A DNA stretch of 64,000 nt from Clostridiales bacterium (GTDB taxonomy: Bacteria; Bacillota; Clostridia; Christensenellales; UBA1242). The stretch is taken from assembly GCA_015055535.1 (NCBI GenBank), contig SVIA01000005.1:3867-67866 (forward strand), written 5' to 3'. The notes beneath the pieces were generated by a model. It was not told the DNA's origin. It saw nothing but the letters and a program-made list of their open reading frames with translations, and did not search any database. Of the stretch, positions 15,828-59,635 are shown in pieces; the first letter of the stretch is position 1, and each line of letters starts with the position of its first letter. The position numbers were made by a program, and so were the translations under genes.

Positions 15828-15928
15828 AATAATTAAATAAAATAAAAAAAAGCGATATTTTACTTTGGATTTTTTTATTTTTGGTGTAATATTTTTATAT
15901 CTAATAATTATTTTTGGGAGGGAAAGTA

Positions 15929-18900: not shown

Positions 18901-19228
18901 TTTTGAATTAGTTGCTCAAGAGTCAGATACTTATAATTCTCTAGATATTTATACTCCAGCTGGTACATTAGAAAAACCTGCTTCAATTCAAGAAACTTAT
19001 TCAGCCGTTATAGATTTTGCAGGTCAACCAATGCCAGTAGAATTTTTAGTGTATGGAGATGAAGATTATACTGGAAATGGTGAATATTTTGCTCAAGTAA
19101 ATGTTAATGGCTTTGGTGTATTCTCTACAATTAAAGTTAATATTGATAGTGATGCAAACACTTTAACATCTATGGGTAAAACATTTAATATTGGTAATGA
19201 TAATTCTTTAACAGAAGTTACAGAATAA
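15929..19228 (+). CDS. Collagen-like repeat surface lipoprotein with repeated ~40-aa modules and C-terminal Ig-like repeats
   Basis: Start at the ATG at 15929, after GGGAGGG. Lipobox LLACSAG/LSGCSAG. GXY tracts (GQPGQPGQPGQPGATGATGQPGQDGQAGQDG). Repeated xVVFRxxxxxIxWKYSK modules and KSAYEIAKEAGFxGxxxxWLESLKG motifs known from phage-tail-fibre-like/collagen-like Firmicutes proteins. Confidence 0.75.
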   Translation: MKEKEKLTEEKKKFPFAGLKKGVAGAVLGVSLLACSAGLLSGCSAGKDGSTWHSGTENPITTQLEGKVGDFYLDEDDFDIYKYTSTGWSLIGNIKGATGQPGQPGQPGQPGATGATGQPGQDGQAGQDGDVVVFRKTATSIEWKYSKEADSEYRTLVNLSEITGQPGQTGQTGQTGQPGQNGDSVVFRVENGYIQWKYSKAEDSTYVNLVSLQTLTGEKGDAGKKVEITADTEYIKWRYEGDSEYTNLVDLSSLKGLEGKSAYEIAKEAGFDGDVTTWLESLKGEKGNDGDTIVLRVTDVAIEWKYSKQADTEYQELILLSEIAGQDGQAGQNGDSVVFRVESGYIQWKYSKAEDSTYVNLVSLEALTGEKGNDGKKVEITADTEFIKWRYEGETEYTNLIEIASLKGENGKSAYEIAKEAGFEGSKEAWLESLKGVSITKVEIKYEVDNYGVEYSVYTIHFSDGSKDIIKVEMPKRVDYISYEGEYKLLMCEEGSEPTLKLRVYFEDGTNEEVDITDDMFITDEGYDKIDFQTIGNYYTKIMYQGKVTYHTFEVVDPNDNTVEYVNLNYSNIVLKHDGLTLVTNNFNGLNLSYSCVNGEYGNVNLNDNDVTVDTSNFTSVGVPFDATVSYRGASTNLTILPVDDLSQLTIVNAYYSGNTGYRNCVINENPFNETECLIFNVSHSELNYTYFMPATADLLIDSSNNVFNNTVESETTQYYFDSSKTLGYTINDTFNIAVYDPALATIMAVVGSGEFKAGTASMADVSYYAYMNSEVAGNVSVALNYSDITVTSGSVDFNTMGTYYVNISYKDTQGSVQVKIYDPEVCNIRGISLDGNAYDLQIDVNATPTEVSEYIASVFDDMDATVYYYENVNGKSYKDITISSSDIDYSTLDTSIVGPQNIYLVYSLDGQTGEYRDAIVITVVVNMEEATLLNEYTAINNLSMWYTSVVTYDNGYAIMNSNMMDSCTTSYTIEGNLFKYYDVNMGGYGYFELVAQESDTYNSLDIYTPAGTLEKPASIQETYSAVIDFAGQPMPVEFLVYGDEDYTGNGEYFAQVNVNGFGVFSTIKVNIDSDANTLTSMGKTFNIGNDNSLTEVTE
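16214..16475 (+). repeat. Collagen-like GXY triplet tracts (nucleotide-level GGT/GGA CAA CCT/ACA/GAT repeats)
   Basis: In-frame runs at 16214-16315 and 16418-16475, plus a shorter one near 16899-16930. Confidence 0.85.
16472..17246 (+). repeat. Internal direct duplication, ~320 bp copies offset by 456 bp
   Basis: 16472-~16790 and 16928-~17246 align with high nucleotide identity, e.g. ggagatag(t/c)gttgtatttagagtagaaa. Confidence 0.8.
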
Positions 19229-28457: not shown

Positions 28458-31400
28458 ATGAAAAATTTTAAAACAAAAAACATTTTTTTAACAACAATTA
28501 AAAATGTAATTATAGGTTTTATGTTGTTAATTGCATGTTTCTGTGGGGGAATTGTTTATAACAAAACAATTCAAAATAGAAAAAATACAATGCAAAATGT
28601 AATGGCAGCAGAAGCTTTGCCTGGCTATTTGCATAAAGATTGGTTTACTAAATTACAAACAGCTGCAAGCGAAAAAGGTGTTACTATTACTAAAGATTTA
28701 CCAACTTCAATTTATTTTACATCTATAGACCCAGAATATAATACATCAAGCGAAAATATAGTTGGTGTAAGTATTGGAAGTATTTTGGAAACAGATGGAA
28801 CTACTGAAACTTGTGGGGAAAAAGATTATACATCTGATTACAGCTCAACTACAAGTGATGTTATTTGTTATTTAGATACAGCTAGTTATGAAATAGTTAT
28901 TTTTTGTCCTGGAACAATTTTTGCTCCGACAGATAGTTCTGGTTTGTTTGAGAGTTTTACAAATTTAACAACCATAGAGTTTAACAGTGTGTTAGATACA
29001 AGTAAAGTTAGATTTATGGGGTTGGGAGATGATGAATCAGAAACTGGTTTTTCTTACGGTATGTTTCGTTTTAGCACGAGTTTAAAATCATTAGATTTAA
29101 GCGGTTTTGATACAGCTAATGTAACAAATATGAGTCATATGTTTGATCATTGTACTTCTTTAGAAACTATTACATTTGGCTCAGATTTTAATGTTTCAAA
29201 TGTAACAAATATGAGTCATATGTTTTATTATTGTACTTCTTTAGAAACTATTACATTTGGCTCAGATTTTAATGTTTCAAATGTAACAAATATGAGTCAT
29301 ATGTTTGATCATTGTACTTCTTTATTGGAATTAGATTTAACTGGCTTTCAAACATCTTCGTTAAAAAATCTAAATGCTATGTTTGCTAATTGTATTTCTT
29401 TAGAAACTGTTACTTTTGGTTCGAATTTTTATACTGGAATTGTGAAAAGTACAAATTATATGTTTTCGGATTGTAAAGCGTTAAAAAGTTTAGACTTAAG
29501 TATGTTTAGTTTATCATCTTTAACAAATATGGACTATATGTTTTATTCATGTACAAGTTTAGAAAGTTTAAATTTTCACGTAAATATTGGACAAAATCAA
29601 ATATCAGCGTTTTTTCCGTTTGGTGGAGGGATTAATAATTTAAAAGAATTTATTGTGCCTTATAGATACTGTAGAGCGGGATCAGGTGGTGCACCTTCAC
29701 TTACATTTGATTTACCAAGTAGTGGATCATGGTATGATGTAGACAGTAGTAATTTATCAGTTACAACGAGAGAAGCTATTACTACAATTAAGCCAGATGA
29801 ATATTCTTATTATATTGGGCTTGAAGCACCTACAATTTATGAGAATAGAGTGGCAGTTGGATATAATATTACACCAAATTTAAATGGTGGAACAGTAAAA
29901 GGAAATATGCCTATTCAATATTATTATTCAAAAGAAGATATTGTTACAACATTACCAATAGTAGAATATGATGACGCGTATAGCGCTAGATATGTTGTAA
30001 CAAGTAATAATGCAAGTATTACAGATAATTATGTGTTAACTATTCCAGCGGGTACTGCTTCAGAAATAACATTAGATATAATAACTGAAGAAAAAGAAAA
30101 TACTTCATATTTACATAAAGACTGGGCGACAAAACTTGGAATAACAAGATCAGAAATTACAAAAATTACATTTACAAATAAAACTGAGGATATTCCTTCT
30201 GGCATTACTGGGGTAAGCATAAGTAGTTCTTACGCTAATGAGGTTTGTGGTGTGACTGCATATGATGGTTATACATATGATGTTATAGGTTATGTAAATG
30301 GAACTGAAATAACAATTTTCTCTAAAGCTGAAAAAATTTATGCTCCAACAGATAGTACTAGTTTATTTGCTAGTTTTTCAAAATTAACAACTTTAGATTT
30401 TAATAACATGTTAGATACAAGTTTAGTTACAAATATGAACAAAATGTTCAATAACTGTTCAGCTTTAACTAGCATAGATGTAAGTTGCTTTGATACGTCT
30501 AATGTAACCATTATGAGCGGTGTATTCTTTTTATGTTCAAGTTTAATTAGTTTAGATTTAAGTAGTTGGGATGTAAGCTCCGTTACAATGTTTAGTGGTG
30601 GTGGAAATAACCCTCCATTTATGATGGGTAGTAATGCTTTAAAAGAAATTTACGCACCTTATAATATACCAGACGGGCTTGGAGTTACTATACAAGGTGT
30701 AGGTGGTAATACTTGGTATGAAGCAACAGGCATTAATTCAACCACTACTTTAGGTACTGCGGTAACTGATATTACAAATGCAAACTGTTCTACAAGTACA
30801 AGTGTTAAACGCTATGCTGTAGCTTATAGCATAACAAACTCAACAGATAGTAGTGTAAGATATTATTTTTATAGTGGCGAAAAAGACTTTGAGGTTCAAT
30901 TACCTTATTCTACTGATGAAACAAACACAACAGTTTATACAATTACAACAGCTCCAAGTATTGGAAATGCTGAAGTTACTAATTTTAACAAATTATTAAT
31001 AAGTAAAAATACTTATGGAAATATTGTTTTATCATCATCAGATATTATAGCAGAACAAGCTGGTTATTTGCATAAAGATTGGGCAACTAAATTTGGAATA
31101 TCAAAATCAAAAATTACTAAATTTACATTTACTGATGTTGCTCCTGCTGTATTTGATTCTCGAGCAAGCATTGGTAGTATACCAACAACCACAACCGCAG
31201 AAGATGGTTCTATAGTTACAACGTGTGGAACAGCAGATTATGATAATTTAAGTTGTTATGATGTTATAGGTTATTTAAATGGTACTGAGTTTATAATTTA
31301 TTGTCCTTATAAAATTTATGCCCCAACGGATTGTTCTAACTTGTTTTCACAAACTTATGCTACACAAATTGAATTTAACGATTTATTTGATACAAGCAAA

Positions 31401-34400
31401 GTTACAAATATGTATCAGATGTTTGGGAATTTAAATGTAATAAGTAAGTTTACAAGTTTAGATTTATCTGGTTTTGATACAAGTAATGTAACAAATATGG
31501 CGGAAATGTTTTATTTTTGTTATTATTTAGAAAATATAACTTTTGGGGAAAATTTCGATACAAGCAGTGTAATAACTATAAATAAAATGTTTTCATACTG
31601 CCGTGCATTAAAAAATTTAGATTTAAGTGGATTTAATACAAATAGTGTAACGGATATTGATGGTATGTTTTCTTATTGCCAGTCATTAGCCACCTTAGAT
31701 TTATCTAGCTTTAACACTAGTAAAATTACAAAGATGACTAGTTTGTTTCAATATTGTTCAAGTTTAGAAAGTATAACTTTTGGAGAAAATTTCGATACCT
31801 CTAACGTGAAAGGTATGGGTTATCATTCGGACTGGACCCCTGAAGGTATGTTTTATAACTGTTCAAGCTTAACCGAATTAGATTTAAGCCATTTTAATAC
31901 AAGTAATGTAACAAATATGGCGCATATGTTCGATACTTGTTCAAGTTTGAAGAGTATAATTTTTGGAGAAAATTTTGTTACTACAAACGTAACGGATGTG
32001 ACAAATATGTTTCTTTATTGTAAAGAACTAACAACATTAGACCTAAGTGGTTTTGATCTTGGCGGTGTAGGTACAAGTTCCTCAAACATGCTTTTTGGGT
32101 GCACTAATTTAAAAGAATTTTATGCTCCTTACAATGTGAAGGAGACTTTAAGTATGTCTTATGCAGGTAATGGCAATTGGTACTATTATATTGGAAATGA
32201 TTATACATCTATACTTAATTTAGTGGTAAAACAAATAGATGCAAATACTTGTTCAACAAGCACAAGTGCTAAACGCTTTACGTCAGCTTATAGTATTACA
32301 AATGAAACAACAGGTGAAGTTGTCTATTACCTATTTAATAGTTCAAAAGAAATTAAAGTAAATTTGCCTGGTTTAACAGCTTATAAAATTTCTTCTTCTC
32401 CAACAGGTGGAAGTGCTGAAATAGAAAATTTAACAACTTTAGTTTTATCACCAAACACTTATGGAGACATTGTTATTTATTCTACTGAAACCGAAGTTGA
32501 ACAAGCTGGTTATTTGCATAGAGACTGGGCTACAAAACTTGGAATAACAAAACCAGAAATTACAAAAATTACATTTACTAACCAAAAACCTAGCACATAC
32601 AACACTAAAGCAAGTGTAGGTAGTTGTGTAGTGTCTAAAACATATCCAGATGGACGTCCCTATACTACTTGGGGGCATGATGACTATGATGGAATGAGTT
32701 GTTATGATGTTACAGGTTATGTAATAAATACTGAAATTGTAATATATTGTCCTTATAAAATTCATGCTCCAAGATCTTGTATGTATTTGTTTGGTGAAAG
32801 TGATTCTAAGTTGAGTGGATTTACATCTTTAACAACTATAGAATTTAACGATTGTTTTGATATTTCTAAAACACATGATTTACAAAGAATGTTTGATGGT
32901 TGTTCTAGTTTAAAAAGCTTAGATTTATCTAGCTTTGGGGAAAACCAGGCATTTAATATGGACGGAATGTTTGAAGGTTGTTCAAGTTTAGAAAGTATAA
33001 ATTTAAATAATTTAGATACAAGTTCAGTAACACTTATGAGATATATGTTTAAAGACTGTGATAATTTAAAAAATATAATCTTTGGTGAAAATTTTGATAC
33101 AAGCAATGTGACAGACATGCAACTCATGTTTTATAATTGTCCAAAATTAACAAATATATCATTTGGTGAAAAATTTAATACTAGTGCAGTAACAAACATG
33201 TGTGCTATGTTTTACGGTTGCGAAAGTTTAACCGATATATCGTTTGTTAATAATTTTGATACAAGTAGTGTAACTGATATGAGGTCAATGTTTGCTGGAT
33301 GTAATGGGTTAGAAAATATTGATTTAATTAATTTCGATACAAGCAATGTAGAAGAGATGACTTATATGTTTGCTTATTGTGAAAATTTAAAAAGTATAAC
33401 TTTTGGTGAAAAATTTAATTCAAACAAAGTATTAAGTATATCACAAATGTTTGATGAATGCGTAAGTTTAACTTCTGTTACATTTAGCGAAAATTTTAAA
33501 GCAAAAAGTGTAACAGATGCAAGCGATATGTTTAATAATTGCAAAAGTTTAATTGAGTTAGATTTAAGCATGTTTGAAACAGAAAGTTTAATAGATATGG
33601 ATTATATGTTTGATCATTGTTTTAATTTAAAAGTTCTTGATATTAGCAACTTTATTACGTCAAACGTAACAAGTATGTCAGCCACTTTCCAGTATTGTTT
33701 TAGTATTGTTTCATTAGACTTTAGTAACTTTGACCTTAGTAAATGTAATGATCTTGATAGTAATTTTCCACATTTGCCGCGTTTAAAAGAATTTTATGCT
33801 CCATATAAAATAAAAGATGAAATAAATTTAGAGAGGTTTAGTGATTGGTATAAAGAAGTAGATGGTTATATATCTACCGCAGATAAAGTTACTGCTATTA
33901 CTTCAGAAAATTGTTCAACACAAGATTATGCTCAAAGATATTTAGCTGGTCTTCCTGTTGTATATAAAGACAAAGGTGGTTTAGATTTTACTGGAACATT
34001 TGATATTGAAAATTTTGTTCAAGTACAATTATATAACAAAGAAATAACATTAAAAGAACCAACAAAAGAAAAATATATTTTTGAAGGTTGGTATTTAGAT
34101 AGTGAATGTACAAACAAAGTTACAACACTACCAGGATTAACAACTGATAATTTTGAATCTACAACACTTTATGCAAATTATATAAGAAATTCTTATACTG
34201 TAACATGGAAAAATTTAGATGGAAAAGTTTTAGAAATAGATGAAAACGTTGAATACTTAGAAATGCCAACATTTGATTCAAACAATCCTACAATGGCTAG
34301 TGATGCAAAATATTCATATGTGTTTAATGGCTGGACACCAGAAATTGTTCCAGTGACAAATGATGTAGTGTATACGGCTAAATATTTAAAAACACTAAGA

Positions 34401-37400
34401 ACATATACTGTATTTTTCTATATGGCAGAATCATCTGAATTTGATGGAGTACCAACTTGGCCGCATGGTTATATAACTTTCCGCAGTTTAACAGTATTTT
34501 ATGGAACTAAAATTTATATAGAAGATGATGTTTTGTTGGTGGATGCTGATACTCCAGTTAGTGTAACTATTAATCTTCCTGAAGATAACGCACAATATAT
34601 ATATACTTTTGATTATTGGACAGTTTCTGATGGTTATACTATTGTAGGTGATATTGAAATTTTTGGAGTTTATACAAAAGAAGTTAATACTTATTCTATT
34701 AACTTTGAAGTAAACAATAGTGAATATGGTACTGTTTCTCAAAGCATTTTAGAAAATGTACCTTATGGAACAACACTAACTGTAAACGAAAATGAAGTTG
34801 TAGTAAACTTAGATACTCCTGTTACTATTACAGCAAATGTAGTAGAAGCAGATGGATTTATAACAACCTTTGTAGGGTTTGATATAGAAAGCACAGTAAC
34901 ATTAACATCAAATATGTTAGTTAAAGCAAATTTTGATAGAATTAAAGAGGGCTTTATTTTAACATTAGAAAAAGGAACGGGAATTAAAGAGGTAACTGGT
35001 GCAGGCACTTATGCTTATAATGCAGAAGTGGTAATAGAAGCAAAAGTTTTAGAGGGCTACACTTGGTATGGCTGGAGTGGAGACATAACAGAAAGTAATA
35101 AAACCTACACCTTTACAATGCCTGCAAACAATGTAACTCTTACAGCTATAGCTACAGCAAACACAGATACACAATATACAGTTATACATTATCAAGAAAA
35201 TTTAAGTGGAAATTACGAGGTAAAAGAAACTGAGATATTAACTGGTACAACAGATAGTGAAATATTCGCTAGTGTTAAAACATATACAGGCTTTACATTT
35301 GATGAAGATAACGAAAACAATATTAAATCTGGAACAATTTTAGCTGATAATAGTTTAGTTTTAAAATTATATTATTCTAGAAATACTTATACAATTACAT
35401 GGTTAGATGAAGATGGAAAAGAGCTTGAAAAAGATGAATCTGTATACTATGGTGCTACTCCTAGTTTTGATTCGGCTGCTCCAACAAAAGAATCTACAAC
35501 AGAAAATACATTCTCTTTTATAGGATTTAGAAAAGAAAATGAAACAGAAGTAACTAACTTAGAATTAGTAACACAAAATATGACTTATATTGCTGTATTT
35601 ATTGCAAATGTAAGGTCTTATGTTGTTAATATTACAGCAGCCGATAGTTTTGGTTATGTAAACACAAACATTGTGCCAAATGTGCCATACGGAACAGTAT
35701 TAAGTGTTACTAACAATATAATTAATGTTAATAATACAATAGTTATTGCAAGTTCAAAAAATAAAGATGCTCAATTTACATATTTATTTGATTCTTTCAG
35801 TATTAATGATGGTTATGTCGTTACTGGTGATACAAATATACAAGCAAACTTTAAAGCTGTTACAAATACTTATACTATAAATTTAGCAGTTAATAATGAT
35901 AGATTTGGTAGTATTTCAAACAATCAAGTATTAAATGTACCATATGGAACAAAAATATTAATTAATGAAAATACTTTAGTTATTACAGATACAACAATAA
36001 TAGCAACACCAATGCAAGAAAATGAACAATATATATATTCATTTGATTCATTTAGTGTGGTTAATGAATATGAAATAACTAGTAATACAACAGTTACCGC
36101 TAACTTTACACGAGTTGTTAAAAATTATACAGTAACATTTAATGTAGATGATGTAAACTTGGGTACAGTTTCTAAAGATTATGTAAGTGTACCATATGGA
36201 ACGCAAATAAGTATTAATGAAAACAAAATTACATTTAACACAGAAACTCAAATAGTAGTAACAGCAGATACAAAAACTATTTCAGGTTACACAATTACAT
36301 TTAAAAATTTTGGAATAACCGATGGTGTTGTTACAAAAGATATTGTAATTACAGCAAATTTTGAATGTGTAAAAAATAAATATAAAGTACAATTAAACGT
36401 AGGTACTGGTATTGTTAGTGTAACTGGTGCTGGAACATATGAATTTGGTCAAACTGTTACAATTAGTGCAACGGTAGATGTTGGTTATGCATGGAACATG
36501 TGGAATGGAAGCTTTGAAGAAATTTCTCAAACATATTCGTTTGTTATGCCAGCAACAAATATAGCATTAACTGCAAATGCTGTTGTTAATACTGGAATAA
36601 AATATATTGTTGAACACTATCAAGAAGACTTAACTGGAGACTATGAATTAAAAGACGTAGAGAATTTACTTGGAGAAACAAATTCATTAGTTACAGCAAG
36701 TGCAAAAACATATATTGGCTTCACTTTTGATGAAGATAATGAAAGTAATGTTAAATCTGGTACTGTATTAGGAAACGGTAGTTTAGTGTTAAAATTATAT
36801 TATAACAGAAATAGATTTACTATTACTTGGAAAAACGAAAACGGAACTGTATTAAAAACAGATGAAAATATTCCATACGGACAAACACCAAGTTATACAG
36901 GTGAAACTTTAACAAAAGAAGCGACTTTACAATATAGTTATACTTTTGCAGGTTGGACACCTGAAATAGAAGTTGTTACAGAAGATGCCGAATATACAGC
37001 CGTATTTACAAGTGCTATTAATAAATACACTATAACTATAACTTATATGCTTAAAGATGAAATACTAAAAGAAGAAACAAAAATAGTAGATTACAATGAA
37101 GATTACACAATTTATACTTATGATAAAAATTATGTGGTTGACAAAGTAACTTTAAACAATGAAAAAGTTAACGATAATAATAGTGTAGTATTAGAAAATA
37201 TTTCAAGTGATAATAACGTTGTTATTTATTACAAAGAAATAGAAAAAATTAATCCGATAATATTAATAAGCATTATTGGCGGAGTTGTTCTTTTAGTTAA
37301 CATAATTGGTTTAAGTGTGATATTTAAACATAAAAAGAAAAGGGGATTAATAGAAAAAAGCAATGCTTTGATTATGAATAAAAACATGCAAAATCAAAGT

Positions 37401-37598
37401 GCAAATCAAAACATAAACGAAGTGAAAAAAATAGATACAACAAAACCTCAAACAAAAAAAGAGATGGATAGTACTATTTCTATAACTAAACCCATTAATT
37501 TACCTACTAAAAAAGTGGTTTCACCAATTAAAACACCAATAAAACCAAATGCTAATACTAAAGCTCCAATAAAACCAAATATAAAACCTAAAAATTAA
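28458..37598 (+). CDS. Giant (3046 aa) repeat surface protein: 4 supermodules of DUF285/26-residue-type LRR repeats, then Listeria-Bacteroides-type repeats, C-terminal TM anchor
   Basis: N-terminal signal/TM. Four blocks each open with GYLH(K/R)DWATKLGI..ITK(I/F)TFT (nt ~28622, 30106, 31062, 32508), followed by runs of FxxCxSLxxLDLSxF(D/N)TSNVTNMxxMF. From ~33960 come repeats such as YTVTWKNLDGKVL...F.GWTPEI. TM segment ILISIIGGVVLLVNIIGLSVIF with a Lys/Pro-rich tail. No LPXTG. Confidence 0.8.
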   Translation: MKNFKTKNIFLTTIKNVIIGFMLLIACFCGGIVYNKTIQNRKNTMQNVMAAEALPGYLHKDWFTKLQTAASEKGVTITKDLPTSIYFTSIDPEYNTSSENIVGVSIGSILETDGTTETCGEKDYTSDYSSTTSDVICYLDTASYEIVIFCPGTIFAPTDSSGLFESFTNLTTIEFNSVLDTSKVRFMGLGDDESETGFSYGMFRFSTSLKSLDLSGFDTANVTNMSHMFDHCTSLETITFGSDFNVSNVTNMSHMFYYCTSLETITFGSDFNVSNVTNMSHMFDHCTSLLELDLTGFQTSSLKNLNAMFANCISLETVTFGSNFYTGIVKSTNYMFSDCKALKSLDLSMFSLSSLTNMDYMFYSCTSLESLNFHVNIGQNQISAFFPFGGGINNLKEFIVPYRYCRAGSGGAPSLTFDLPSSGSWYDVDSSNLSVTTREAITTIKPDEYSYYIGLEAPTIYENRVAVGYNITPNLNGGTVKGNMPIQYYYSKEDIVTTLPIVEYDDAYSARYVVTSNNASITDNYVLTIPAGTASEITLDIITEEKENTSYLHKDWATKLGITRSEITKITFTNKTEDIPSGITGVSISSSYANEVCGVTAYDGYTYDVIGYVNGTEITIFSKAEKIYAPTDSTSLFASFSKLTTLDFNNMLDTSLVTNMNKMFNNCSALTSIDVSCFDTSNVTIMSGVFFLCSSLISLDLSSWDVSSVTMFSGGGNNPPFMMGSNALKEIYAPYNIPDGLGVTIQGVGGNTWYEATGINSTTTLGTAVTDITNANCSTSTSVKRYAVAYSITNSTDSSVRYYFYSGEKDFEVQLPYSTDETNTTVYTITTAPSIGNAEVTNFNKLLISKNTYGNIVLSSSDIIAEQAGYLHKDWATKFGISKSKITKFTFTDVAPAVFDSRASIGSIPTTTTAEDGSIVTTCGTADYDNLSCYDVIGYLNGTEFIIYCPYKIYAPTDCSNLFSQTYATQIEFNDLFDTSKVTNMYQMFGNLNVISKFTSLDLSGFDTSNVTNMAEMFYFCYYLENITFGENFDTSSVITINKMFSYCRALKNLDLSGFNTNSVTDIDGMFSYCQSLATLDLSSFNTSKITKMTSLFQYCSSLESITFGENFDTSNVKGMGYHSDWTPEGMFYNCSSLTELDLSHFNTSNVTNMAHMFDTCSSLKSIIFGENFVTTNVTDVTNMFLYCKELTTLDLSGFDLGGVGTSSSNMLFGCTNLKEFYAPYNVKETLSMSYAGNGNWYYYIGNDYTSILNLVVKQIDANTCSTSTSAKRFTSAYSITNETTGEVVYYLFNSSKEIKVNLPGLTAYKISSSPTGGSAEIENLTTLVLSPNTYGDIVIYSTETEVEQAGYLHRDWATKLGITKPEITKITFTNQKPSTYNTKASVGSCVVSKTYPDGRPYTTWGHDDYDGMSCYDVTGYVINTEIVIYCPYKIHAPRSCMYLFGESDSKLSGFTSLTTIEFNDCFDISKTHDLQRMFDGCSSLKSLDLSSFGENQAFNMDGMFEGCSSLESINLNNLDTSSVTLMRYMFKDCDNLKNIIFGENFDTSNVTDMQLMFYNCPKLTNISFGEKFNTSAVTNMCAMFYGCESLTDISFVNNFDTSSVTDMRSMFAGCNGLENIDLINFDTSNVEEMTYMFAYCENLKSITFGEKFNSNKVLSISQMFDECVSLTSVTFSENFKAKSVTDASDMFNNCKSLIELDLSMFETESLIDMDYMFDHCFNLKVLDISNFITSNVTSMSATFQYCFSIVSLDFSNFDLSKCNDLDSNFPHLPRLKEFYAPYKIKDEINLERFSDWYKEVDGYISTADKVTAITSENCSTQDYAQRYLAGLPVVYKDKGGLDFTGTFDIENFVQVQLYNKEITLKEPTKEKYIFEGWYLDSECTNKVTTLPGLTTDNFESTTLYANYIRNSYTVTWKNLDGKVLEIDENVEYLEMPTFDSNNPTMASDAKYSYVFNGWTPEIVPVTNDVVYTAKYLKTLRTYTVFFYMAESSEFDGVPTWPHGYITFRSLTVFYGTKIYIEDDVLLVDADTPVSVTINLPEDNAQYIYTFDYWTVSDGYTIVGDIEIFGVYTKEVNTYSINFEVNNSEYGTVSQSILENVPYGTTLTVNENEVVVNLDTPVTITANVVEADGFITTFVGFDIESTVTLTSNMLVKANFDRIKEGFILTLEKGTGIKEVTGAGTYAYNAEVVIEAKVLEGYTWYGWSGDITESNKTYTFTMPANNVTLTAIATANTDTQYTVIHYQENLSGNYEVKETEILTGTTDSEIFASVKTYTGFTFDEDNENNIKSGTILADNSLVLKLYYSRNTYTITWLDEDGKELEKDESVYYGATPSFDSAAPTKESTTENTFSFIGFRKENETEVTNLELVTQNMTYIAVFIANVRSYVVNITAADSFGYVNTNIVPNVPYGTVLSVTNNIINVNNTIVIASSKNKDAQFTYLFDSFSINDGYVVTGDTNIQANFKAVTNTYTINLAVNNDRFGSISNNQVLNVPYGTKILINENTLVITDTTIIATPMQENEQYIYSFDSFSVVNEYEITSNTTVTANFTRVVKNYTVTFNVDDVNLGTVSKDYVSVPYGTQISINENKITFNTETQIVVTADTKTISGYTITFKNFGITDGVVTKDIVITANFECVKNKYKVQLNVGTGIVSVTGAGTYEFGQTVTISATVDVGYAWNMWNGSFEEISQTYSFVMPATNIALTANAVVNTGIKYIVEHYQEDLTGDYELKDVENLLGETNSLVTASAKTYIGFTFDEDNESNVKSGTVLGNGSLVLKLYYNRNRFTITWKNENGTVLKTDENIPYGQTPSYTGETLTKEATLQYSYTFAGWTPEIEVVTEDAEYTAVFTSAINKYTITITYMLKDEILKEETKIVDYNEDYTIYTYDKNYVVDKVTLNNEKVNDNNSVVLENISSDNNVVIYYKEIEKINPIILISIIGGVVLLVNIIGLSVIFKHKKKRGLIEKSNALIMNKNMQNQSANQNINEVKKIDTTKPQTKKEMDSTISITKPINLPTKKVVSPIKTPIKPNANTKAPIKPNIKPKN
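29118..29325 (+). repeat. Near-perfect 81-bp in-frame tandem repeat (about 2.6 copies)
   Basis: Copies start at 29118, 29199 and 29280 (27-aa unit NVTNMSHMF(DH/YY)CTSLETITFGSDFNVS). The only difference seen between full copies is gatcat versus tattat. Confidence 0.9.
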
Positions 37599-54093: not shown

Positions 54094-54924
54094 ATGAGTT
54101 ATGCAGACAAGGTGTTTGTAAAAAATGTTAAAGAAATTTTAAAACATGGAGTATGGGATAAAGATAGACTTGTTAGGCCAAAATGGGATGATGGAACGCC
54201 TGCACACACTATTAAAAAATTTTGTTTAGTAAATAGATATGATTTATCTAAAGAATTTCCTATTATAACAATAAGAAAAACAAACTATAAAAATGCTATT
54301 GATGAATTACTTTGGATTTGGCAAAAAAAGAGTAATAATATTAAAGATTTACACAGTCATATTTGGGATAGCTGGGCAGATGAAAGTGGCTCTATTGGTA
54401 AAGCTTATGGCTATCAACTAGGAGTAAAACACCAATATAGTGAGGGTATGTTTGATCAAGTTGATAGAGTAATTTACGATTTAAAAAACAATCCTACATC
54501 TAGAAGAATTATGACGAATATTTATAATCATAGTGAATTAAACGAAATGAATTTATATCCTTGTGCTTATTCAATGACATTTAATGTAACTGGAAATAAA
54601 CTTAATGCAATTTTAAATCAACGCTCTCAAGATATGTTAACTGCTAATAACTGGAATGTATGTCAGTACGCAGTTTTAGTGCATATGATTGCTAAAGCTT
54701 GTAATTTAGAAGTTGGAGAACTAGTGCACGTTATTGCAGACGCTCATATTTATGAAAGACATATTCCAATAGTTAAAGAAATTATAAAACACAAACAATA
54801 TAAAGCTCCAAAGTTTGAAGTTGATGAAAATGTAAAAGATTTTTATGATTTTAAAGTGGATAGTTTTAAATTTGTAGATTATAAATTTAACGATAAAAAA
54901 TATAAAATAGAAGTTGCAGTGTAG
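54094..54924 (+). CDS. thyA: Thymidylate synthase (ThyA)
   Basis: RRIMTNIYN...LYPCAYSMTFNV (catalytic Cys), NQRSQDMLTANNWNVCQYAVL, and DAHIYERH. Confidence 0.85.
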   Translation: MSYADKVFVKNVKEILKHGVWDKDRLVRPKWDDGTPAHTIKKFCLVNRYDLSKEFPIITIRKTNYKNAIDELLWIWQKKSNNIKDLHSHIWDSWADESGSIGKAYGYQLGVKHQYSEGMFDQVDRVIYDLKNNPTSRRIMTNIYNHSELNEMNLYPCAYSMTFNVTGNKLNAILNQRSQDMLTANNWNVCQYAVLVHMIAKACNLEVGELVHVIADAHIYERHIPIVKEIIKHKQYKAPKFEVDENVKDFYDFKVDSFKFVDYKFNDKKYKIEVAV

Positions 54925-54925
54925 T

Positions 54926-55813
54926 ATGGGTTGTGAAATTTGTCCAAGAAATTGTAATGTAAATAGAAACTCTGTTGCAGGTTTTTGTAATAGTACATGT
55001 CTTAAAATAAATAAAGCCATGATTCATTTTTGGGAAGAGCCAATAATTAGTGGGGAAAATGGTAGTGGTACAATATTTTTTAGTGGTTGTAACTTAAAAT
55101 GTATTTATTGTCAAAACTATGAAATAAGTAGTTTAAATAATGGAATTAATATAACAATAAATCAATTGGTTGATATTATAAAAAAACTAGAAGAAAAAAA
55201 TGTAACAAACATAAATTTTGTTACCCCTACTCATTTTACTGATGAAATTATTTCGGCATTAAAAATTTATAAGCCAAAAGTTCCAGTTGTTTGGAATACG
55301 TCAGGATACGAAAAGCCTGAAACAATTGAAAAACTGAAAAATTACGTAGATATCTTTTTATTTGACTTAAAATATTATGATGAAAAATTAAGTTTAGAAT
55401 ATTCAAAAGCTAAAGATTATTTTAAATATGCATCAAACAGTTTAATTAAAGTTAGAGAAATTATTCCTTTAGATATTATTGAAAATAATATTATGAAAAA
55501 GGGAATAATTGTAAGGCATTTGGTTTTACCAAATACAACAAACGATAGCATTAAAATAATTGATTTTATTAACGAAAAACTAGGTAATAAAACTATTGTT
55601 AGTTTATTAAACCAATATACACCTTACTATAAGGCTTTAAATCATCCTATATTAAAAAGAAAAGTTAAAGATATAGAGTATAAAAGAGTGGTAAAACATT
55701 TAATAAATTTAAATTTTGAAAATGCTTATCTTCAAGATAAAGACGCTAGTAATGAATGTTTTATACCAAATTTTGAAGAAGAATTTAATATAACAAAATT
55801 TTTAAATGATTAA
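54926..55813 (+). CDS. Radical SAM protein (PflX-like activating-enzyme family)
   Basis: CNLKCIYCQN (CxxxCxxC) plus an N-terminal CEICPRNCNVNR cluster. The start is either the ATG at 54926 or the TTG at 54914, which overlaps the thyA stop. Confidence 0.7.
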   Translation: MGCEICPRNCNVNRNSVAGFCNSTCLKINKAMIHFWEEPIISGENGSGTIFFSGCNLKCIYCQNYEISSLNNGINITINQLVDIIKKLEEKNVTNINFVTPTHFTDEIISALKIYKPKVPVVWNTSGYEKPETIEKLKNYVDIFLFDLKYYDEKLSLEYSKAKDYFKYASNSLIKVREIIPLDIIENNIMKKGIIVRHLVLPNTTNDSIKIIDFINEKLGNKTIVSLLNQYTPYYKALNHPILKRKVKDIEYKRVVKHLINLNFENAYLQDKDASNECFIPNFEEEFNITKFLND

Positions 55814-55835
55814 TTTTAAATTTTGGCAATTATAT

Positions 55836-55864
55836 TTGACTTAAATTTATTATTGTGTTATAAA
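55836..55864 (+). promoter_or_regulatory. Promoter of the tyrS leader (extended -10)
   Basis: TTGACT (55836-41), 17 nt, TGt-TATAAA (-10 at 55859-64). The predicted +1 is the A of the leader ATG at 55871. Confidence 0.6.
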
Positions 55865-55870
55865 ATTATT

Positions 55871-55915
55871 ATGAAATTAATGCAAAAATCTTATTACTAT
55901 TACTATAAAATTTAG
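55871..55915 (+). CDS. Candidate tyrS leader peptide MKLMQKSYYYYYKI (five consecutive Tyr codons)
   Basis: ATG AAA TTA ATG CAA AAA TCT TAT TAC TAT TAC TAT AAA ATT TAG. No SD, and the ATG coincides with the predicted TSS (leaderless). Lies immediately upstream of the alternative hairpins and tyrS. Confidence 0.55.
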   Translation: MKLMQKSYYYYYKI

Positions 55916-55927
55916 TTCTAGCTAAAA

Positions 55928-55959
55928 GGTAGAAGTTTTTTGCTTATAAGTCTTCTACC
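55928..55959 (+). promoter_or_regulatory. Antiterminator helix of the tyrS leader
   Basis: GGTAGAAG (55928-35) is perfectly complementary to CTTCTACC (55952-59), which is also the 5' arm of the terminator. Confidence 0.55.
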
Positions 55960-55977
55960 ATGTAGAAGATTTTTTTT
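55951..55977 (+). terminator. Intrinsic terminator (attenuator) in the tyrS leader
   Basis: TCTTCTAC (55951-58)/GTAGAAGA (55962-69) with loop CAT, followed by T8 (55970-77). The tyrS SD AAGGAG follows directly. Confidence 0.7.
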
Positions 55978-55988
55978 AAGGAGAAATT

Positions 55989-57209
55989 ATGGATAGATCA
56001 AAATTGTTTGAAACATTAAAAGAACGTGGATATGTTTATCAAATGTCTAACGAAGAAAATGTAAGGAAAATTGCAAATGGTGAACCAACTACTGTATATG
56101 TTGGTATAGATCCAACGGCTGATAGTTTACACATTGGGCATTTCTTTTCATTAATGATGATTAAATACTTTCAAGATGCTGGTCATAAAGTTATTGTTTT
56201 AGTTGGTGGTGCTACAGCGATGGTTGGTGATCCTAGTGGAAGAACTGATTTAAGAAAAATGTTAACAAAAGAACAAGTTGAACATAATTTTCGTGAAGTT
56301 AAATCTTTAATAGAAAGATTTGTTAATACTGATGGCGAAAATCCAGCTATCATTGTTAATAATGCTGATTGGTTTAAAGACTATAGTTATGTAGATTTTA
56401 TGAGAGATATTGGTAAACATTTTAACGTTAACAGAATGTTATCTAATGAAGCTTACGCTAGACGTTTAGAAGAGGGTGGATTAACTTTCTTGGAAATGGG
56501 TTATATGTTAATGCAAGCGTATGATTTTGTTTATTTAAACAAAAAATACGGTTGTACTTTACAAATTGGAGGTTCTGATCAATGGGGAAATATGACTGCC
56601 GGAACTGAACTTAGTAGGAAAATGGCTTTTGAAGATGGTTTAGAACATAATCTAGAATGTTTAACTTGTCCACTGTTAACAAATAGTGAAGGTCAAAAAA
56701 TGGGTAAAACTGCTAAAGGTGCTCTTTGGGTTGCTAGAGAAAAAACAAGTGTTTACGATTTCTATCAATATTTTTATAATGTGCCAGATACAGATACTGA
56801 AACACTACTTAGATTATTTACAAGAATTCCACTAGATGAAATTAAAGAACTTGTAAATTCTGACATTGTAAAAGCTAAAAAAGTTATGGCTTATGAAATT
56901 ACAAAACTTGTTCATGGTAAAGTTGAGGCTGATAACGCTATTAATATGGCAAATAATATTTTTAATAATGCAAACTTTGAAAATATGCCAAGTGAAAATG
57001 TTAAAATTGATAACGAAATTAATGTTGTAGACTTTTTAGCATTAACTTCACTATTTTCTTCTAAAGGCGAAGCAAGAAGAATGATAGAACAAGGTGGAAT
57101 AACAATTGATGATGAAAAAATATCAGATATTAAGCTTGTTTTGAAGGTAAAAAGTGAATATATAATTAAAAAAGGTAAGAAAACTTTTATAAAAGTTCTA
57201 AATAAATAA
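55989..57209 (+). CDS. tyrS: Tyrosyl-tRNA synthetase
   Basis: HIGH motif (SLHIGHF), KMSKS-type KMGKT, a C-terminal S4-like domain, 406 aa. Confidence 0.9.
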   Translation: MDRSKLFETLKERGYVYQMSNEENVRKIANGEPTTVYVGIDPTADSLHIGHFFSLMMIKYFQDAGHKVIVLVGGATAMVGDPSGRTDLRKMLTKEQVEHNFREVKSLIERFVNTDGENPAIIVNNADWFKDYSYVDFMRDIGKHFNVNRMLSNEAYARRLEEGGLTFLEMGYMLMQAYDFVYLNKKYGCTLQIGGSDQWGNMTAGTELSRKMAFEDGLEHNLECLTCPLLTNSEGQKMGKTAKGALWVAREKTSVYDFYQYFYNVPDTDTETLLRLFTRIPLDEIKELVNSDIVKAKKVMAYEITKLVHGKVEADNAINMANNIFNNANFENMPSENVKIDNEINVVDFLALTSLFSSKGEARRMIEQGGITIDDEKISDIKLVLKVKSEYIIKKGKKTFIKVLNK

Positions 57210-57217
57210 TAGCAAAT

Positions 57218-57245
57218 AAAAAGGCAGATATAATTCTGCCTTTTT
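57218..57245. terminator. Bidirectional intrinsic terminator between tyrS and the convergent small gene
   Basis: AAAAAGGCAGA/TCTGCCTTTTT stem. Confidence 0.75.
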
Positions 57246-57468
57246 ATTTTTTAAGTTTTTTAGAAATAGCGTTTAACTCTTTTGCTTCATTTAAACATAA
57301 TTTATATTTTTCAGTTAATTCTTCAATTTTTTTTAAGGTGTTTAAATTTGTTCTATCTTTATTATATATTTCTATTAAAGCTTCTTTTTCTTTATTTATT
57401 TTATTTATAGTATTTAAATTTTCATTTATTAATTTCGTTACTTCAACTAAATTATAATAATTTTTCAT
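57244..57468 (-). CDS. Hypothetical 74-aa coiled-coil protein
   Basis: Start set at MKNYYNL, after a strong GGAGGA RBS. Overlaps the stop of the upstream 727-aa gene by 17 nt. Confidence 0.5.
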   Translation of the reverse strand: MKNYYNLVEVTKLINENLNTINKINKEKEALIEIYNKDRTNLNTLKKIEELTEKYKLCLNEAKELNAISKKLKK

Positions 57469-59635
57469 TTTCTTCCTCCAATTTAAATATACAATATTGT
57501 TCATCTTGCCAATCACCTTTATATTCGTAATTTTCAGAAAACTTTTTAAAGTTTAAACCTTTTAATAAATTTTCTTCTTTTAATATATTGTATTTATAAA
57601 ATATATTTGTAAATTTATTATATTTTCCACCAATATTTATTTGTTTGATTTTATTTTCAGGATGATTTTTATTATAAGTGTTTACAAAGGCCTTTATTCC
57701 TTTTAAAAAAGTTAGAAAAACCTTTTCACGTTCTAAAGGATCTAAAATATTTGTTGTTAATGAACCTGTATTTACTACACCATAGCCTTGAGTAGGATTG
57801 ATATAGAGTGTAAATTTTGAAACAATTTTACCAGCTTCATTTTTGATTACCAAATTTTTCACATCTGGGTGAATTATACTTGCAATCATTATTCCTTCAC
57901 CAGAGCCATCAATATGAGCACAGCAAGAACAGTAGTATCCAAGCATTAAATTTTTAGGATCATTTTTCTTTAGCCATTCGTAGCTATAATCTTTTTTTAG
58001 CGTTTTTGTAATATCATTTAAACTTTCTAAATTAAGTTTTAAAATTTCTTCTTCAATTTTATTAGCCACTGAGAAAATAGAAGCATCTTCAATTTCAATA
58101 TCTTGAAAGTTATTTTTTTCTACCATTTTATTATATTTTTCTATAATTGAAACACCCAATTCAAAATCTTCCTGATTATTTGAAAATTTAGCAATTTCAT
58201 TTGCAATGTTTTGAGTTTTCTCTGTTACGCCATCAAAAATAGTTGGAGTTAAATAATTTTTAAATTTTTCTACCGTTGGCTTTAGTTGCCTGTGTTGAAC
58301 ATTTTTTGATACATTGTTTATTTGAATTTCTTCAAAATTATTATAAGCTTCAGAAAATATGTCGTAACCTTCTGCATATAAAGAAAGCAGTTTTGTAAAA
58401 TTTTCTTTTTTTGTTATAAATTCAGAGTATTCTTGATTAAAACCTTTTAGTTCCATTTTTTGAAACATACTTATAAAAGTTGTTAAGCTAACTGTATTTG
58501 TAATTAAAATTTCTTCTATAAAATTTGAAATTTTATTTCCAAATTGTTTGTTTTCACTAAAAACTCCCAAATTATAACATGCAATTATAAAAGTTTGTTC
58601 GTCGTATTGATCAAGGTTTGTTGCAAATAATTTTTCTAATCTTTTATAAAATTTAAAATTAGATTTTTTAAAAATTTCATCTTGCTTATATCTAATAAGC
58701 AATTTTGCAAAACCATAAGGAATTTTAATGTATTTTTCAATACTATTGTTTAAGCTGTTTAATTTATTATATTCGTCAGAAAATCTTACTGAATAATTTT
58801 TAAAGCCAGACAAATTTAAACTAAAAATTGTATTAACACTTTCATTAGAAATAATTTCAATTTCCACACTTTTCAATTGTTTGCAAAACATTAATAAATT
58901 TTCATCCAAATGAACCATTTTATATGTAGACAATTTAAACTCTTCTAAATTATTGCAGTTAGAGAAGGCAATAGGCTCAATTTTTTCTAATGTTTTTGGA
59001 AAATTAATATTTTTTAATTTTATACAATGAGAAAAGCAGGAACTTCTAATTAATTTTACATTTTCGGGTATGGTTATACTTGTAAGGCCAATGCAAGTGT
59101 CAAAAAGACCCATAGATAATTCTGTTAAACTATTAGGTAGTTGTATATTTTTTAATTTAAAACAACTAGCAAAACAAAAATGACCAATTTCAACAACGGA
59201 ATTGGGAATAATAACATTATCTAAGTTGGGACAATTTTTAAAAGCATAGCCTTCAATAATTTTTAAATTTTTATTAAAGTGTATTTTTTTAAGATTTTTA
59301 CAATCTTGAAAACAACTTTGTTCTAATCTTATTATATTTTGTGGTAATTTTACATATTCTAAATTTAAACAATTACAAAAAGTTGATGGCCTTAAAGTTT
59401 TAATATCGGCATCTATTATTATATTTTTAATATATGGGTTATTTATAAACGCTTTTTCATTAATTTCTTTTACATTTTTATTAATTATAACAGTATTTAC
59501 ATTTAAATTTGAAAAAGCATTAGAATCTATAATTGTAATATCATTAGGTACAACAAAAACACGTTCGCCATTAATAAAGCTAACGTCTTCATTATTTATT
59601 GTTGTTAATTTTTTTATTTTTGAAAAGATTCCCAT
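57452..59635 (-). CDS. BspA-type LRR protein with large uncharacterised C-terminal domain
   Basis: N-terminal ~270 aa hold LRR_5-like repeats (IDSNAFSN..., IEGYAFKNCPNLDNVIIPNSV...). The C-terminal ~450 aa match no family I recognise and include GYYCSCCAHIDGSGEGIM. Confidence 0.6.
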   Translation of the reverse strand: MGIFSKIKKLTTINNEDVSFINGERVFVVPNDITIIDSNAFSNLNVNTVIINKNVKEINEKAFINNPYIKNIIIDADIKTLRPSTFCNCLNLEYVKLPQNIIRLEQSCFQDCKNLKKIHFNKNLKIIEGYAFKNCPNLDNVIIPNSVVEIGHFCFASCFKLKNIQLPNSLTELSMGLFDTCIGLTSITIPENVKLIRSSCFSHCIKLKNINFPKTLEKIEPIAFSNCNNLEEFKLSTYKMVHLDENLLMFCKQLKSVEIEIISNESVNTIFSLNLSGFKNYSVRFSDEYNKLNSLNNSIEKYIKIPYGFAKLLIRYKQDEIFKKSNFKFYKRLEKLFATNLDQYDEQTFIIACYNLGVFSENKQFGNKISNFIEEILITNTVSLTTFISMFQKMELKGFNQEYSEFITKKENFTKLLSLYAEGYDIFSEAYNNFEEIQINNVSKNVQHRQLKPTVEKFKNYLTPTIFDGVTEKTQNIANEIAKFSNNQEDFELGVSIIEKYNKMVEKNNFQDIEIEDASIFSVANKIEEEILKLNLESLNDITKTLKKDYSYEWLKKNDPKNLMLGYYCSCCAHIDGSGEGIMIASIIHPDVKNLVIKNEAGKIVSKFTLYINPTQGYGVVNTGSLTTNILDPLEREKVFLTFLKGIKAFVNTYNKNHPENKIKQINIGGKYNKFTNIFYKYNILKEENLLKGLNFKKFSENYEYKGDWQDEQYCIFKLEEENEKLL

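Follow-up and report, generated by a model that had tools for sequence, protein, structure and literature searches.

An ORF with five Tyr codons and an intrinsic terminator precede tyrS

We analysed the region in front of tyrS, the gene for tyrosyl-tRNA synthetase, in a 64-kb stretch of DNA from a Clostridiales bacterium (contig SVIA01000005.1, 26.5% G+C; this whole stretch is referred to below as the window). The gene lies on the plus strand at 55989-57209 and encodes a protein of 406 aa, which matches the TIGR00234 tyrS equivalog of NCBIfam with 406 bits (cut-off 114) and is 100% identical to an NCBI protein annotated as 'MAG: tyrosine--tRNA ligase [Clostridiales bacterium]' (MAG, metagenome-assembled genome). 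Its leader of ~118 nt holds a short open reading frame (sORF) with consecutive Tyr codons and an intrinsic terminator, which together make up a candidate ribosome-mediated attenuator.

The region opens with a near-consensus, sigma-70-type promoter on the plus strand (55836-55864), composed of a -35 element TTGACT (55836-41), a 17-nt spacer and an extended -10 element TGtTATAAA (55856-64). Next comes the sORF MKLMQKSYYYYYKI (plus strand, 55871-55915), which runs from the ATG at 55871 over 14 codons to the stop TAG at 55913-15 and carries the presumptive regulatory codons TAT TAC TAT TAC TAT at 55892-55906. Four plus-strand segments are distinguished. Segment 1 (GCAAAAAtCTTaTTACT, 55882-55898) is the interior of the sORF; it takes in Tyr codons 1 and 2 plus the first base of Tyr codon 3 and is the 5' arm of a predicted anti-antiterminator helix, P1. 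Segment 2 (55928-55943) consists of GGTAGAAG (55928-35), the 5' arm of the antiterminator, followed by a T6-G-C tract (55936-43), and in its entirety is the 3' arm of P1. Segment 3 (CTTCTACC, 55952-55959) is the 3' arm of the antiterminator and can form 8 bp with 55928-35, a pairing that excludes the terminator. The terminator itself (plus strand, 55948-55977) is built from a 5' arm at 55948-58, the loop CAT, a 3' arm at 55962-72 that includes segment 4 (GTAGAAGA, 55962-69) and a T8 tract at 55970-77, which ends 11 nt ahead of the tyrS ATG and is followed by the tyrS Shine-Dalgarno sequence (SD) AAGGAG at 55978-83. One further element, TTCTA (plus strand, 55916-55920; '1b'), can make a 5-bp mini-helix with TAGAA (55930-34) within the apical part of P1. 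An earlier reading made from the sequence alone (the original prediction) had placed the promoter, sORF, switch segments, SD and ATG at these same positions, and each of its coordinates proved correct to the base.

The arrangement departs from chance in several respects. The Tyr run of the sORF is the only run of at least five Tyr in all six frames of the window. The terminator was recovered independently by a consensus scan (11 pairs, 55948-55972), which returned three sites in the 2.6 kb between 55000 and 57600 as compared to 0.3 expected from shuffled sequences, and it is the only terminator of the window that is located more than 100 nt (137 nt) past the preceding ORF and directly ahead of a gene. 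The fold of 55910-55980 has a z-score of -2.8 relative to dinucleotide shuffles. Neither a second attenuator-like 5' terminator nor another aminoacyl-tRNA synthetase (aaRS) gene was found in the window.

For comparison we took 160 tyrS loci from genome and metagenome collections, plus contigs encoding the closest TyrS proteins (designated below by L numbers). Runs of the type (TAY)≥4 occur 43 times in 51 kb of DNA upstream of tyrS (350 nt each from the 159 loci with a mapped start; 0.84 per kb) and 14 times in the remaining 1.74 Mb, both strands counted (0.008 per kb), which amounts to a 105-fold enrichment in front of tyrS.

No T-box is detected in front of tyrS

At the gathering threshold, a search of the whole window with Rfam yielded ten tRNAs and no T-box or other leader family, and a permissive search of 55700-56100 (E ≤ 10) returned chance matches only (E ≥ 1.4). 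Similarly, no T-box was found in the relatives L011, L013, L161 and L175 (Rfam, E ≤ 0.01). The same search recovers full-length T-boxes directly upstream of tyrS in eight other loci (L002, L005, L007, L009, L010, L172, L173 and L176; E = 4e-11 to 4e-20), which come from other Clostridia and encode TyrS proteins 67-74% identical to that of the window; a T-box in the window would therefore have been detected. The absence of a T-box at tyrS, which the original prediction had claimed by inspection, is thus borne out by covariance search (RF00230 not matched), and we rejected a T-box or any other described Rfam leader family as an account of this leader, there being no significant match in the window.

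Five loci whose TyrS proteins are among the closest relatives (L001, L003, L006, L008 and L084; 72-74% identical) carry neither a T-box nor a leader peptide. The preceding gene ends within a few bases of the tyrS SD in L001, L003, L006 and L008, and leaves a gap of ~35 nt in L084. These may be second tyrS copies or genes that are expressed as embedded members of an operon.

The Tyr-run leader is conserved upstream of tyrS

Sixteen distinct tyrS loci (the window and 15 others), with TyrS identities of 60-100%, share the promoter, the Tyr-run sORF, segments 2 and 3 and the terminator with its T-run. The arrangement is present in all seven distinct loci with 84-90% TyrS identity (L161, L163, L165, L166, L168, L169 and L170), as well as in L175 (64%) and in L011-L016 and L021 (60-65%); the records of the related loci are labelled Christensenellales, Christensenella, Catabacter or 'uncultured Clostridia'. 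The common layout is, in order, a TTGAC(A/T)-17-TAnnnT promoter, a short Tyr-run ORF, segment 2, segment 3 and a hairpin with a T-run. Segment 2 follows the consensus GG(T/C)(A/G)GA(A/G)(G/A), then T5-7, then G in 16/16 loci, while segment 3 follows CTTCT(A/G)(C/T)C, of which L016 has a bulged form (CTTCTAGCC). A hairpin with a T-run occupies the terminator position in 16/16, the register of the stem differing between two clades.

Conservation of the encoded peptide is limited to the Tyr run, the N-terminal residues being variable (relatives: MVNNKNLYYYYIFAF, MIKSKNSYYYYYYYL, MMISKNYYYY(Y)G, MCISKNYYYYV, MIFSKKYYYYYYC, MQKVYYYAYTLKF, MKIFKNSYYYYYF, MISLAKLYYYYEIV and MI(K/N/M)xNYYYYY(N/K)F). 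The run varies from 4 to 7 codons by whole-codon indels, TAT and TAC interchange freely, and the start and stop remain in frame, which, as judged from these comparisons, is the signature of a translated regulatory ORF and not of a functional peptide. TAC accounts for 35% of the leader Tyr codons (27/78 in the 16 leaders) vs 16% in the long ORFs of the window (126/787), a bias whose binomial p of 5e-5 is overstated given that the sequences are not independent. It is consistent with selection favouring stronger G-C pairing to the GGUAG of segment 2, or favouring the codon that is read fastest by tRNA-Tyr(GUA).

These patterns bear on an alternative in which the sORF is translated, and the terminator reports general translation capacity (ribosome availability, inhibitors or (p)ppGpp-type stress) instead of Tyr-tRNA, the Tyr run being merely a convenient slow or structural stretch, as with the antibiotic-sensing leader peptides of Firmicutes. 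The known ribosome-mediated attenuators of Firmicutes are indeed mostly antibiotic sensors (bmrCD, vmlR and tlrB; PMC6851288), and since the Tyr codons are also constrained by their pairing with GGUAG, with TAC enriched, their conservation is partly structural. Against this, all three independent architectures (the other two, type 2 and type 3, are described below) have a run of Tyr codons, and all have it upstream of tyrS; the length of the run changes but its identity is constant, and the rest of the peptide is unconserved, so that no arrest motif is evident. We consider sensing of general translation capacity unlikely, and sensing of Tyr-tRNA supply remains our preferred reading of the run.

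The gene upstream of the leader varies. It encodes a radical SAM protein in the window, L161, L163 and L175, ComEC in L165 and L166, and other proteins elsewhere, the leader still accompanying tyrS in L168, L169, L014, L016 and L021. Conservation of the Tyr-run sORF, both alternative helices and the T-run upstream of tyrS, a test for which was proposed with the original prediction, is therefore found in 15 other distinct loci regardless of the upstream gene. The leader could conceivably owe its terminator to coincidence: the hairpin and T8 would then be the terminator of the thyA/radical-SAM operon, and the sORF would be spurious or encode a small (radical-SAM-modified) peptide. That the leader stays with tyrS under ComEC and the other upstream genes speaks against this, as does the promoter that separates the upstream gene from the sORF in all members, and the peptide is conserved in its Tyr run alone. 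The absence of a separate terminator between the radical SAM stop (55813) and the tyrS promoter is in line with the idea, and the hairpin and T8 probably do also stop upstream read-through. A radical SAM gene beside a short aromatic-rich peptide moreover resembles loci for ribosomally synthesised and post-translationally modified peptides (RiPPs), but the radical SAM protein in question (weakly) resembles glycyl-radical-enzyme activases, has no SPASM-type match and scores below all equivalog cut-offs. Altogether we hold a fortuitous operon terminator to be highly improbable. The more specific idea of a RiPP precursor acted on by the adjacent radical SAM enzyme was rejected, since the sORF persists without that gene and the enzyme shows no sign of being of the SPASM/twitch type.

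The sORF is probably leaderless

In 14/16 loci exactly 6 nt separate the end of the -10 hexamer from the sORF ATG, and no SD lies in between (L012 was read by eye); the exceptions are L013, with a spacing of 9 nt, and L170, with a spacing of 17 nt and an SD (AAAGGAGA). Overall, an SD is missing before the sORF ATG in 15/16 members. Because transcription usually starts 6-8 nt from the -10 element, the predicted start in the window falls at ~55871, the A of the ATG itself, and on this promoter geometry the sORF is probably leaderless. A leaderless start would mean that ribosome loading could begin once the 5' end has cleared the polymerase. It would also mean that transcripts reading through from upstream, where the AUG is internal and without an SD, would by default terminate.

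The missing SD is also what an RNA-only switch would lead one to expect, in which the (UAY)n tract and GGUAG adopt alternate structures under the control of a protein or of direct tRNA-Tyr binding, with the ORF incidental and untranslated; (UAY)n is complementary both to the tRNA-Tyr anticodon GUA and to segment 2. An incidental ORF would not, however, account for an ATG after the -10 box and an in-frame stop that are kept in all members, nor for indels in multiples of three, and canonical SDs do precede the Tyr-run ORFs of L170 and of all type-2 and type-3 loci. No Rfam family was matched. An RNA-only switch is thus in our view very unlikely, and we continue with a presumably translated sORF as the sensor.

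The regulatory codons are predicted to pair with the antiterminator strand

Two alternative helices had been proposed to compete for segment 3, and in folding they came out with near-equal energies: -10.4 kcal/mol for the 8-bp antiterminator (55928-35:55952-59) and -10.9 kcal/mol for the terminator (55948-72). The minimum free energy (MFE) structure of the ribosome-free leader contains, in addition, helix P1, in which GCAAAAA-u-CUU-a-UUACU (55882-98) pairs with GGUAGAAG-u-UUUUUGC (55928-43), at -9.1 kcal/mol or, together with the small apical hairpin, -11.3 kcal/mol. In P1, GGUAG pairs with the Tyr codons themselves, holding GUA, the complement of UAC, while the A-run of the Lys/Asn codons finds its partner in the conserved T-tract. 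P1 and the terminator together give the full leader -22.2 kcal/mol, far more stable than the antiterminator alone. The same topology, including the pairing of GGTAG with Tyr codons and of the T-tract with the A-run of the ORF, is found in the MFE structures of 15/16 members, and the leader fold reaches z ≤ -2 relative to shuffles in seven members.

The original prediction had cast TTCTA:TAGAA (1b:2) as the anti-antiterminator and had let the stalled ribosome cover TTCTA (55916-20), and here it was not borne out. With the leading edge of the ribosome set 15-16 nt from the first P-site base (toeprint distance, PMC6851288), the footprint extends to 55904-55914 when the A site is occupied by Tyr codons 1-4, and to ~55916-17 when it is occupied by Tyr codon 5. 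We rejected TTCTA:TAGAA as the main anti-antiterminator, for at -1.7 kcal/mol it is too weak and it is left exposed by the Tyr-stalled ribosome. In the predicted structures, the effective anti-antiterminator is instead the body of the ORF (55882-98) paired with 55928-43. As in the trp and his leaders, segment 1 thereby comprises the regulatory codons together with the sequence just 5' of them, and a stall on any Tyr codon would occlude it. We keep 1b:2 as a predicted auxiliary or pause hairpin, a role that it may play beside P1.

To model the effect of the ribosome, each transcript was folded to just past segment 3 with ~27 nt masked. With the mask on the first, middle or last Tyr codon, the probability of the antiterminator pairing, P(2:3), was 0.84-1.0 in all 16 members, with the single exception of L169 at the last Tyr codon (0.22). 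Without a ribosome, P(2:3) is ≤ 0.11 in 9/16 members; two lie at 0.2-0.3, and five, the window among them, have high values. In this model, then, the 'on' state is robust. A second element of the original prediction, a ribosome at the stop codon that masks the antiterminator arm, fails for the window, where 12 nt separate the stop from segment 2; a stop-codon ribosome covers segment 2 only in the short-gap members L161, L170 and L163. Since it leaves segment 2 uncovered in the window, termination there would need the ribosome to depart before segment 3 emerges.

Sequence variation in the leader helices

The antiterminator 2:3 is paired in 97.7% of cells across the 16 sequences vs 44-66% when the partner strand is slid, and it is the sole helix in the RNAalifold consensus. 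In L016, GGTAG has changed to GGCGG, TTCTAGC to TTCTGGC, and CTTCTACC to CTTCTAGCC; these changes compensate both partners of the altered base, and the bulge is scored as a mismatch by the column-wise test.

The mini-helix 1b:2 is paired in 93.7% of cells and contains two compensatory pairs, with covariation in L016, L168, L169 and L175; among 500 shuffles, 36-39 reach the observed covariation measures and 64 the percentage paired. For the base of P1, the arms were anchored independently of pairing: one arm was taken as the four bases that precede the A-run, the other as four bases counted from the first non-T past the T-tract. Eleven distinct rows gave 72.7% of cells paired vs 61.8% in shuffles. 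One position shows G-C, A-U and G-U, and two others have swapped between A-U and U-A; the covariation score is 0.43 vs 0.29, a level attained in 170 of 5000 shuffles. For the base of P1 and for 1b:2, covariation is thus suggestive but not decisive. Two MAFFT alignments were left unused for P1 and the terminator, since in them the A-run arm, the T-tract arm and the two registers of the terminator are misaligned.

A model for Tyr-responsive attenuation of tyrS

Starting from the sequence elements, their conservation and their predicted energies, we propose the following mechanism. Transcription would start at or beside the first base of the sORF ATG, so that the sORF would be leaderless, and four segments of the RNA would compete. 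When Tyr-tRNA is plentiful, the ribosome would complete the 14 codons and leave, segment 1 would pair with segment 2 (GGUAG with the UAY codons), segment 3 would then be free for segment 4, and transcription would end at T8. Under a shortage of Tyr-tRNA, or with little TyrRS activity, the ribosome would stall at any of the five Tyr codons and occupy segment 1; segment 2, left free, would capture segment 3 as it emerges, no terminator would form, and tyrS would be transcribed. The T-tract past segment 2, behind the small 1b:2 hairpin, may also make RNA polymerase pause and so let the ribosome keep pace; by analogy with a known leader discussed below, this T5-7 tract may be the pause site that buys the necessary time.

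A number of points weigh against this mechanism. The case is a computational one, made for an uncultured host. Leaderless initiation is argued solely from promoter geometry, and for Firmicutes, B. subtilis among them, transcription is reported to run uncoupled from translation. In the column-wise test, 2:3 displays no double-sided covariation: its changes are one-sided, compatible with wobble pairing and matched by shuffles, and the antiterminator and terminator stems are nearly invariant. Because only one-sided changes are seen, the support for the antiterminator is conserved complementarity, not covariation, while that for P1 and 1b:2 lies at ~0.03-0.08 by shuffles that take no account of phylogeny. 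The P1 of the window is itself weak (z = -0.5). Furthermore, in a window transcript ending after segment 3 the antiterminator wins at equilibrium even without a ribosome (P = 0.98), as it does in L015, L016, L168 and L013; the 'off' state of the window must therefore be kinetic, with P1 forming before segment 3 is made. Termination would consequently rely on timely release of the ribosome or on the presumed pause.

The leader nevertheless combines a sORF with tandem cognate codons, a terminator ahead of the gene, an antiterminator that shares a strand with it and a predicted 1:2 helix whose 5' strand lies under the position of the stalled ribosome. With matched helices, conservation across loci and no T-box, the core of the original prediction, a Tyr-codon attenuator in place of a T-box on tyrS, is supported, and we put the probability that this is a functional, Tyr-responsive, ribosome-mediated leader-peptide attenuator at about 80%.

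Further Tyr-run architectures and neighbouring features

Two other arrangements with Tyr-run ORFs occur in front of tyrS in other uncultured Firmicutes. A leader with six segments of alternating complementarity is found ~230-330 nt upstream of tyrS in other Christensenella-like MAGs (L018, L026, L029, L034-L036, L038, L041, L044, L048, L052, L055, L056, L065, L066, L069, L098, L109 and L140). It begins with an SD-led sORF, MKNLFAxTSYYYYYI, followed in turn by GCTATATGTAGAAG-T4, by CTGTCATATAGC, by GCTATGTGGCAG with a T-run, and by TCTGCCAC...GTGGCAGA with a T-run; as far as the sequence tells, these could be two tandem terminators disarmed in cascade by a single antiterminator. A second SD-led sORF (M..[KR][TI]YA..G..) comes next, the codons of which form a GC hairpin, ACGCCC-N4-GGGCGT, without a T-run.

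The other arrangement, located in the last ~150 nt before tyrS on metagenome contigs (L118, L126, L128, L130, L132, L134, L135, L137, L138, L141, L142, L150, L152-L155 and L157), joins a T-box to an upstream ORF (uORF). A T-box-like leader, recognised by its conserved GGTGGTACC core motif (by motif only, not by Rfam), is followed by a terminator, a strong SD (AAGGAGGTG) and the uORF MDSDYYYY(Y)FDDCNLINYTNYLGGNKNGKEII, which has 31-33 codons, spans the SD and ATG of tyrS and terminates, in a different frame, 20 nt into that gene. A riboswitch that senses tRNA and an uORF with a Tyr run thus appear to act in series on one tyrS. From these two further architectures it would follow that putative ribosome-based sensing of Tyr-tRNA on tyrS arose or diversified more than once, and that a T-box can be present alongside it.

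Upstream of the window's leader, the thymidylate synthase gene (54094-54924) overlaps by 11 nt the gene for the 299-aa radical SAM protein, which ends at 55813. The radical SAM-tyrS synteny recurs among called genes in L161, L163 and L175, and similar upstream coding sequence in L011-L013 and L015 suggests the same pairing there. Downstream, a perfect 15-bp hairpin, AAATAAAAAGGCAGA...TCTGCCTTTTTATTT (57214-57249), with T-runs on both strands, lies between tyrS and convergent minus-strand genes (a 90-aa ORF and a 727-aa BspA-type leucine-rich-repeat protein, 57452-59635) and looks like a bidirectional terminator. Elsewhere in the window, a TraG/HerA-type P-loop ATPase gene at its start (13-2022) is suggestive of a conjugative element, a 3046-aa ORF occupies 28458-37598 in the middle, and a 1104-aa ORF (15914-19228) has no Pfam match.

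Discussion

Classical leader-peptide attenuators control trp, his, pheA, thr, leu and ilv in E. coli and Salmonella, and pheST, with its pheM leader, is a case in which an aaRS is the target. The leader described here resembles these in its run of cognate codons within segment 1, its four alternating segments, its terminator before the gene and its logic, by which a stall would lead to read-through. It differs from them in the amino acid (Tyr), the gene (tyrS), the host (Clostridia), the probably leaderless sORF and the pairing of segment 2 with the regulatory codons through an anticodon-like GUA, and it has no sequence similarity to any Rfam leader family.

A comparative survey from 2005 stated that the aaRS genes of Firmicutes are regulated by T-boxes, 'none by classical attenuation', whereas for trpS and leuS of Streptomyces it predicted upstream attenuators of the classical type (PMC1262725). 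The Streptomyces cases too are leader attenuators of aaRS genes in a Gram-positive phylum and were found by comparative genomics (PMC1262725), but they concern Actinobacteria, GC-rich sequences and other amino acids. Within Firmicutes, His-leader attenuators have been predicted in the B. cereus group, Peptostreptococcaceae and Erysipelotrichales (PMC9413887). These likewise occur in lineages without the usual T-box or repressor and combine 3-5 tandem cognate codons with terminator and antiterminator hairpins (PMC9413887); they belong to a different sequence family and control his biosynthesis operons, not an aaRS gene. For the leaderless start, the parallel is with the polycysteine sORF attenuators of mycobacteria (bioRxiv 10.1101/834739), which, at the level of title and abstract, share a leaderless 5'-AUG, a run of codons for a single amino acid and amino-acid-responsive attenuation of downstream genes; they differ in host (Actinobacteria), amino acid (Cys) and target (biosynthetic operons).

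Two further comparisons concern what is sensed and how. Like the T-box (RF00230), the usual control of tyrS in Firmicutes, the leader lies in the 5' region of tyrS, and it would respond to the charging of tRNA-Tyr and act through a terminator/antiterminator; unlike it, the leader has no Stem I, specifier or T-box sequence, is ~118 nt long vs ~200-260 nt, and would use a translating ribosome as the sensor. The B. subtilis tlrB (yxjB) leader peptide provides the precedent for timing, since there a hairpin and a T-rich, NusG-dependent pause synchronise the polymerase with the ribosome (PMC6851288). A small hairpin and a conserved T6 tract stand at the equivalent place in the window, where a pause would be expected by this likeness; tlrB differs in sensing an antibiotic through a peptide arrest motif and not amino-acid supply.

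Our full-text literature searches, the coverage of which did not extend to Lopatovskaya et al. 2010 (PMID 20198868), returned no Tyr-run leader peptide and no tyrS attenuator. The mechanism as such is classical; new are accordingly its use for Tyr, its target gene in this phylum, a start that is probably leaderless and an antiterminator strand predicted to pair with the regulatory codons. The broader proposition, that these leaders form an undescribed, probably leaderless Tyr leader-peptide family which replaces the tyrS T-box across uncultured Christensenellales-like Clostridia and exists in at least three architectures, is one to which we give slightly better than even odds.

The aaRS genes of Firmicutes are textbook T-box territory, and here an orthologous tyrS would be controlled instead by a Tyr-run leader peptide that is conserved across a sizeable uncultured gut clade. 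Tyrosine would thereby join those amino acids that have a leader peptide of their own. Annotation pipelines overlook this leader because no Rfam model covers it and the sORF has just 14 codons; the 16 loci could seed a covariance or sORF model. The finding also bears on whether the coordination of transcription and translation in Clostridia suffices for ribosome-mediated attenuation. If our reading is true, ribosome-based amino-acid sensing, synchronised by a T-tract, would operate in Firmicutes lineages that have been assumed to rely on ribosome-independent riboregulators, and tyrS would constitute a natural system in which ribosome-based and tRNA-based sensing of one and the same signal can be compared.

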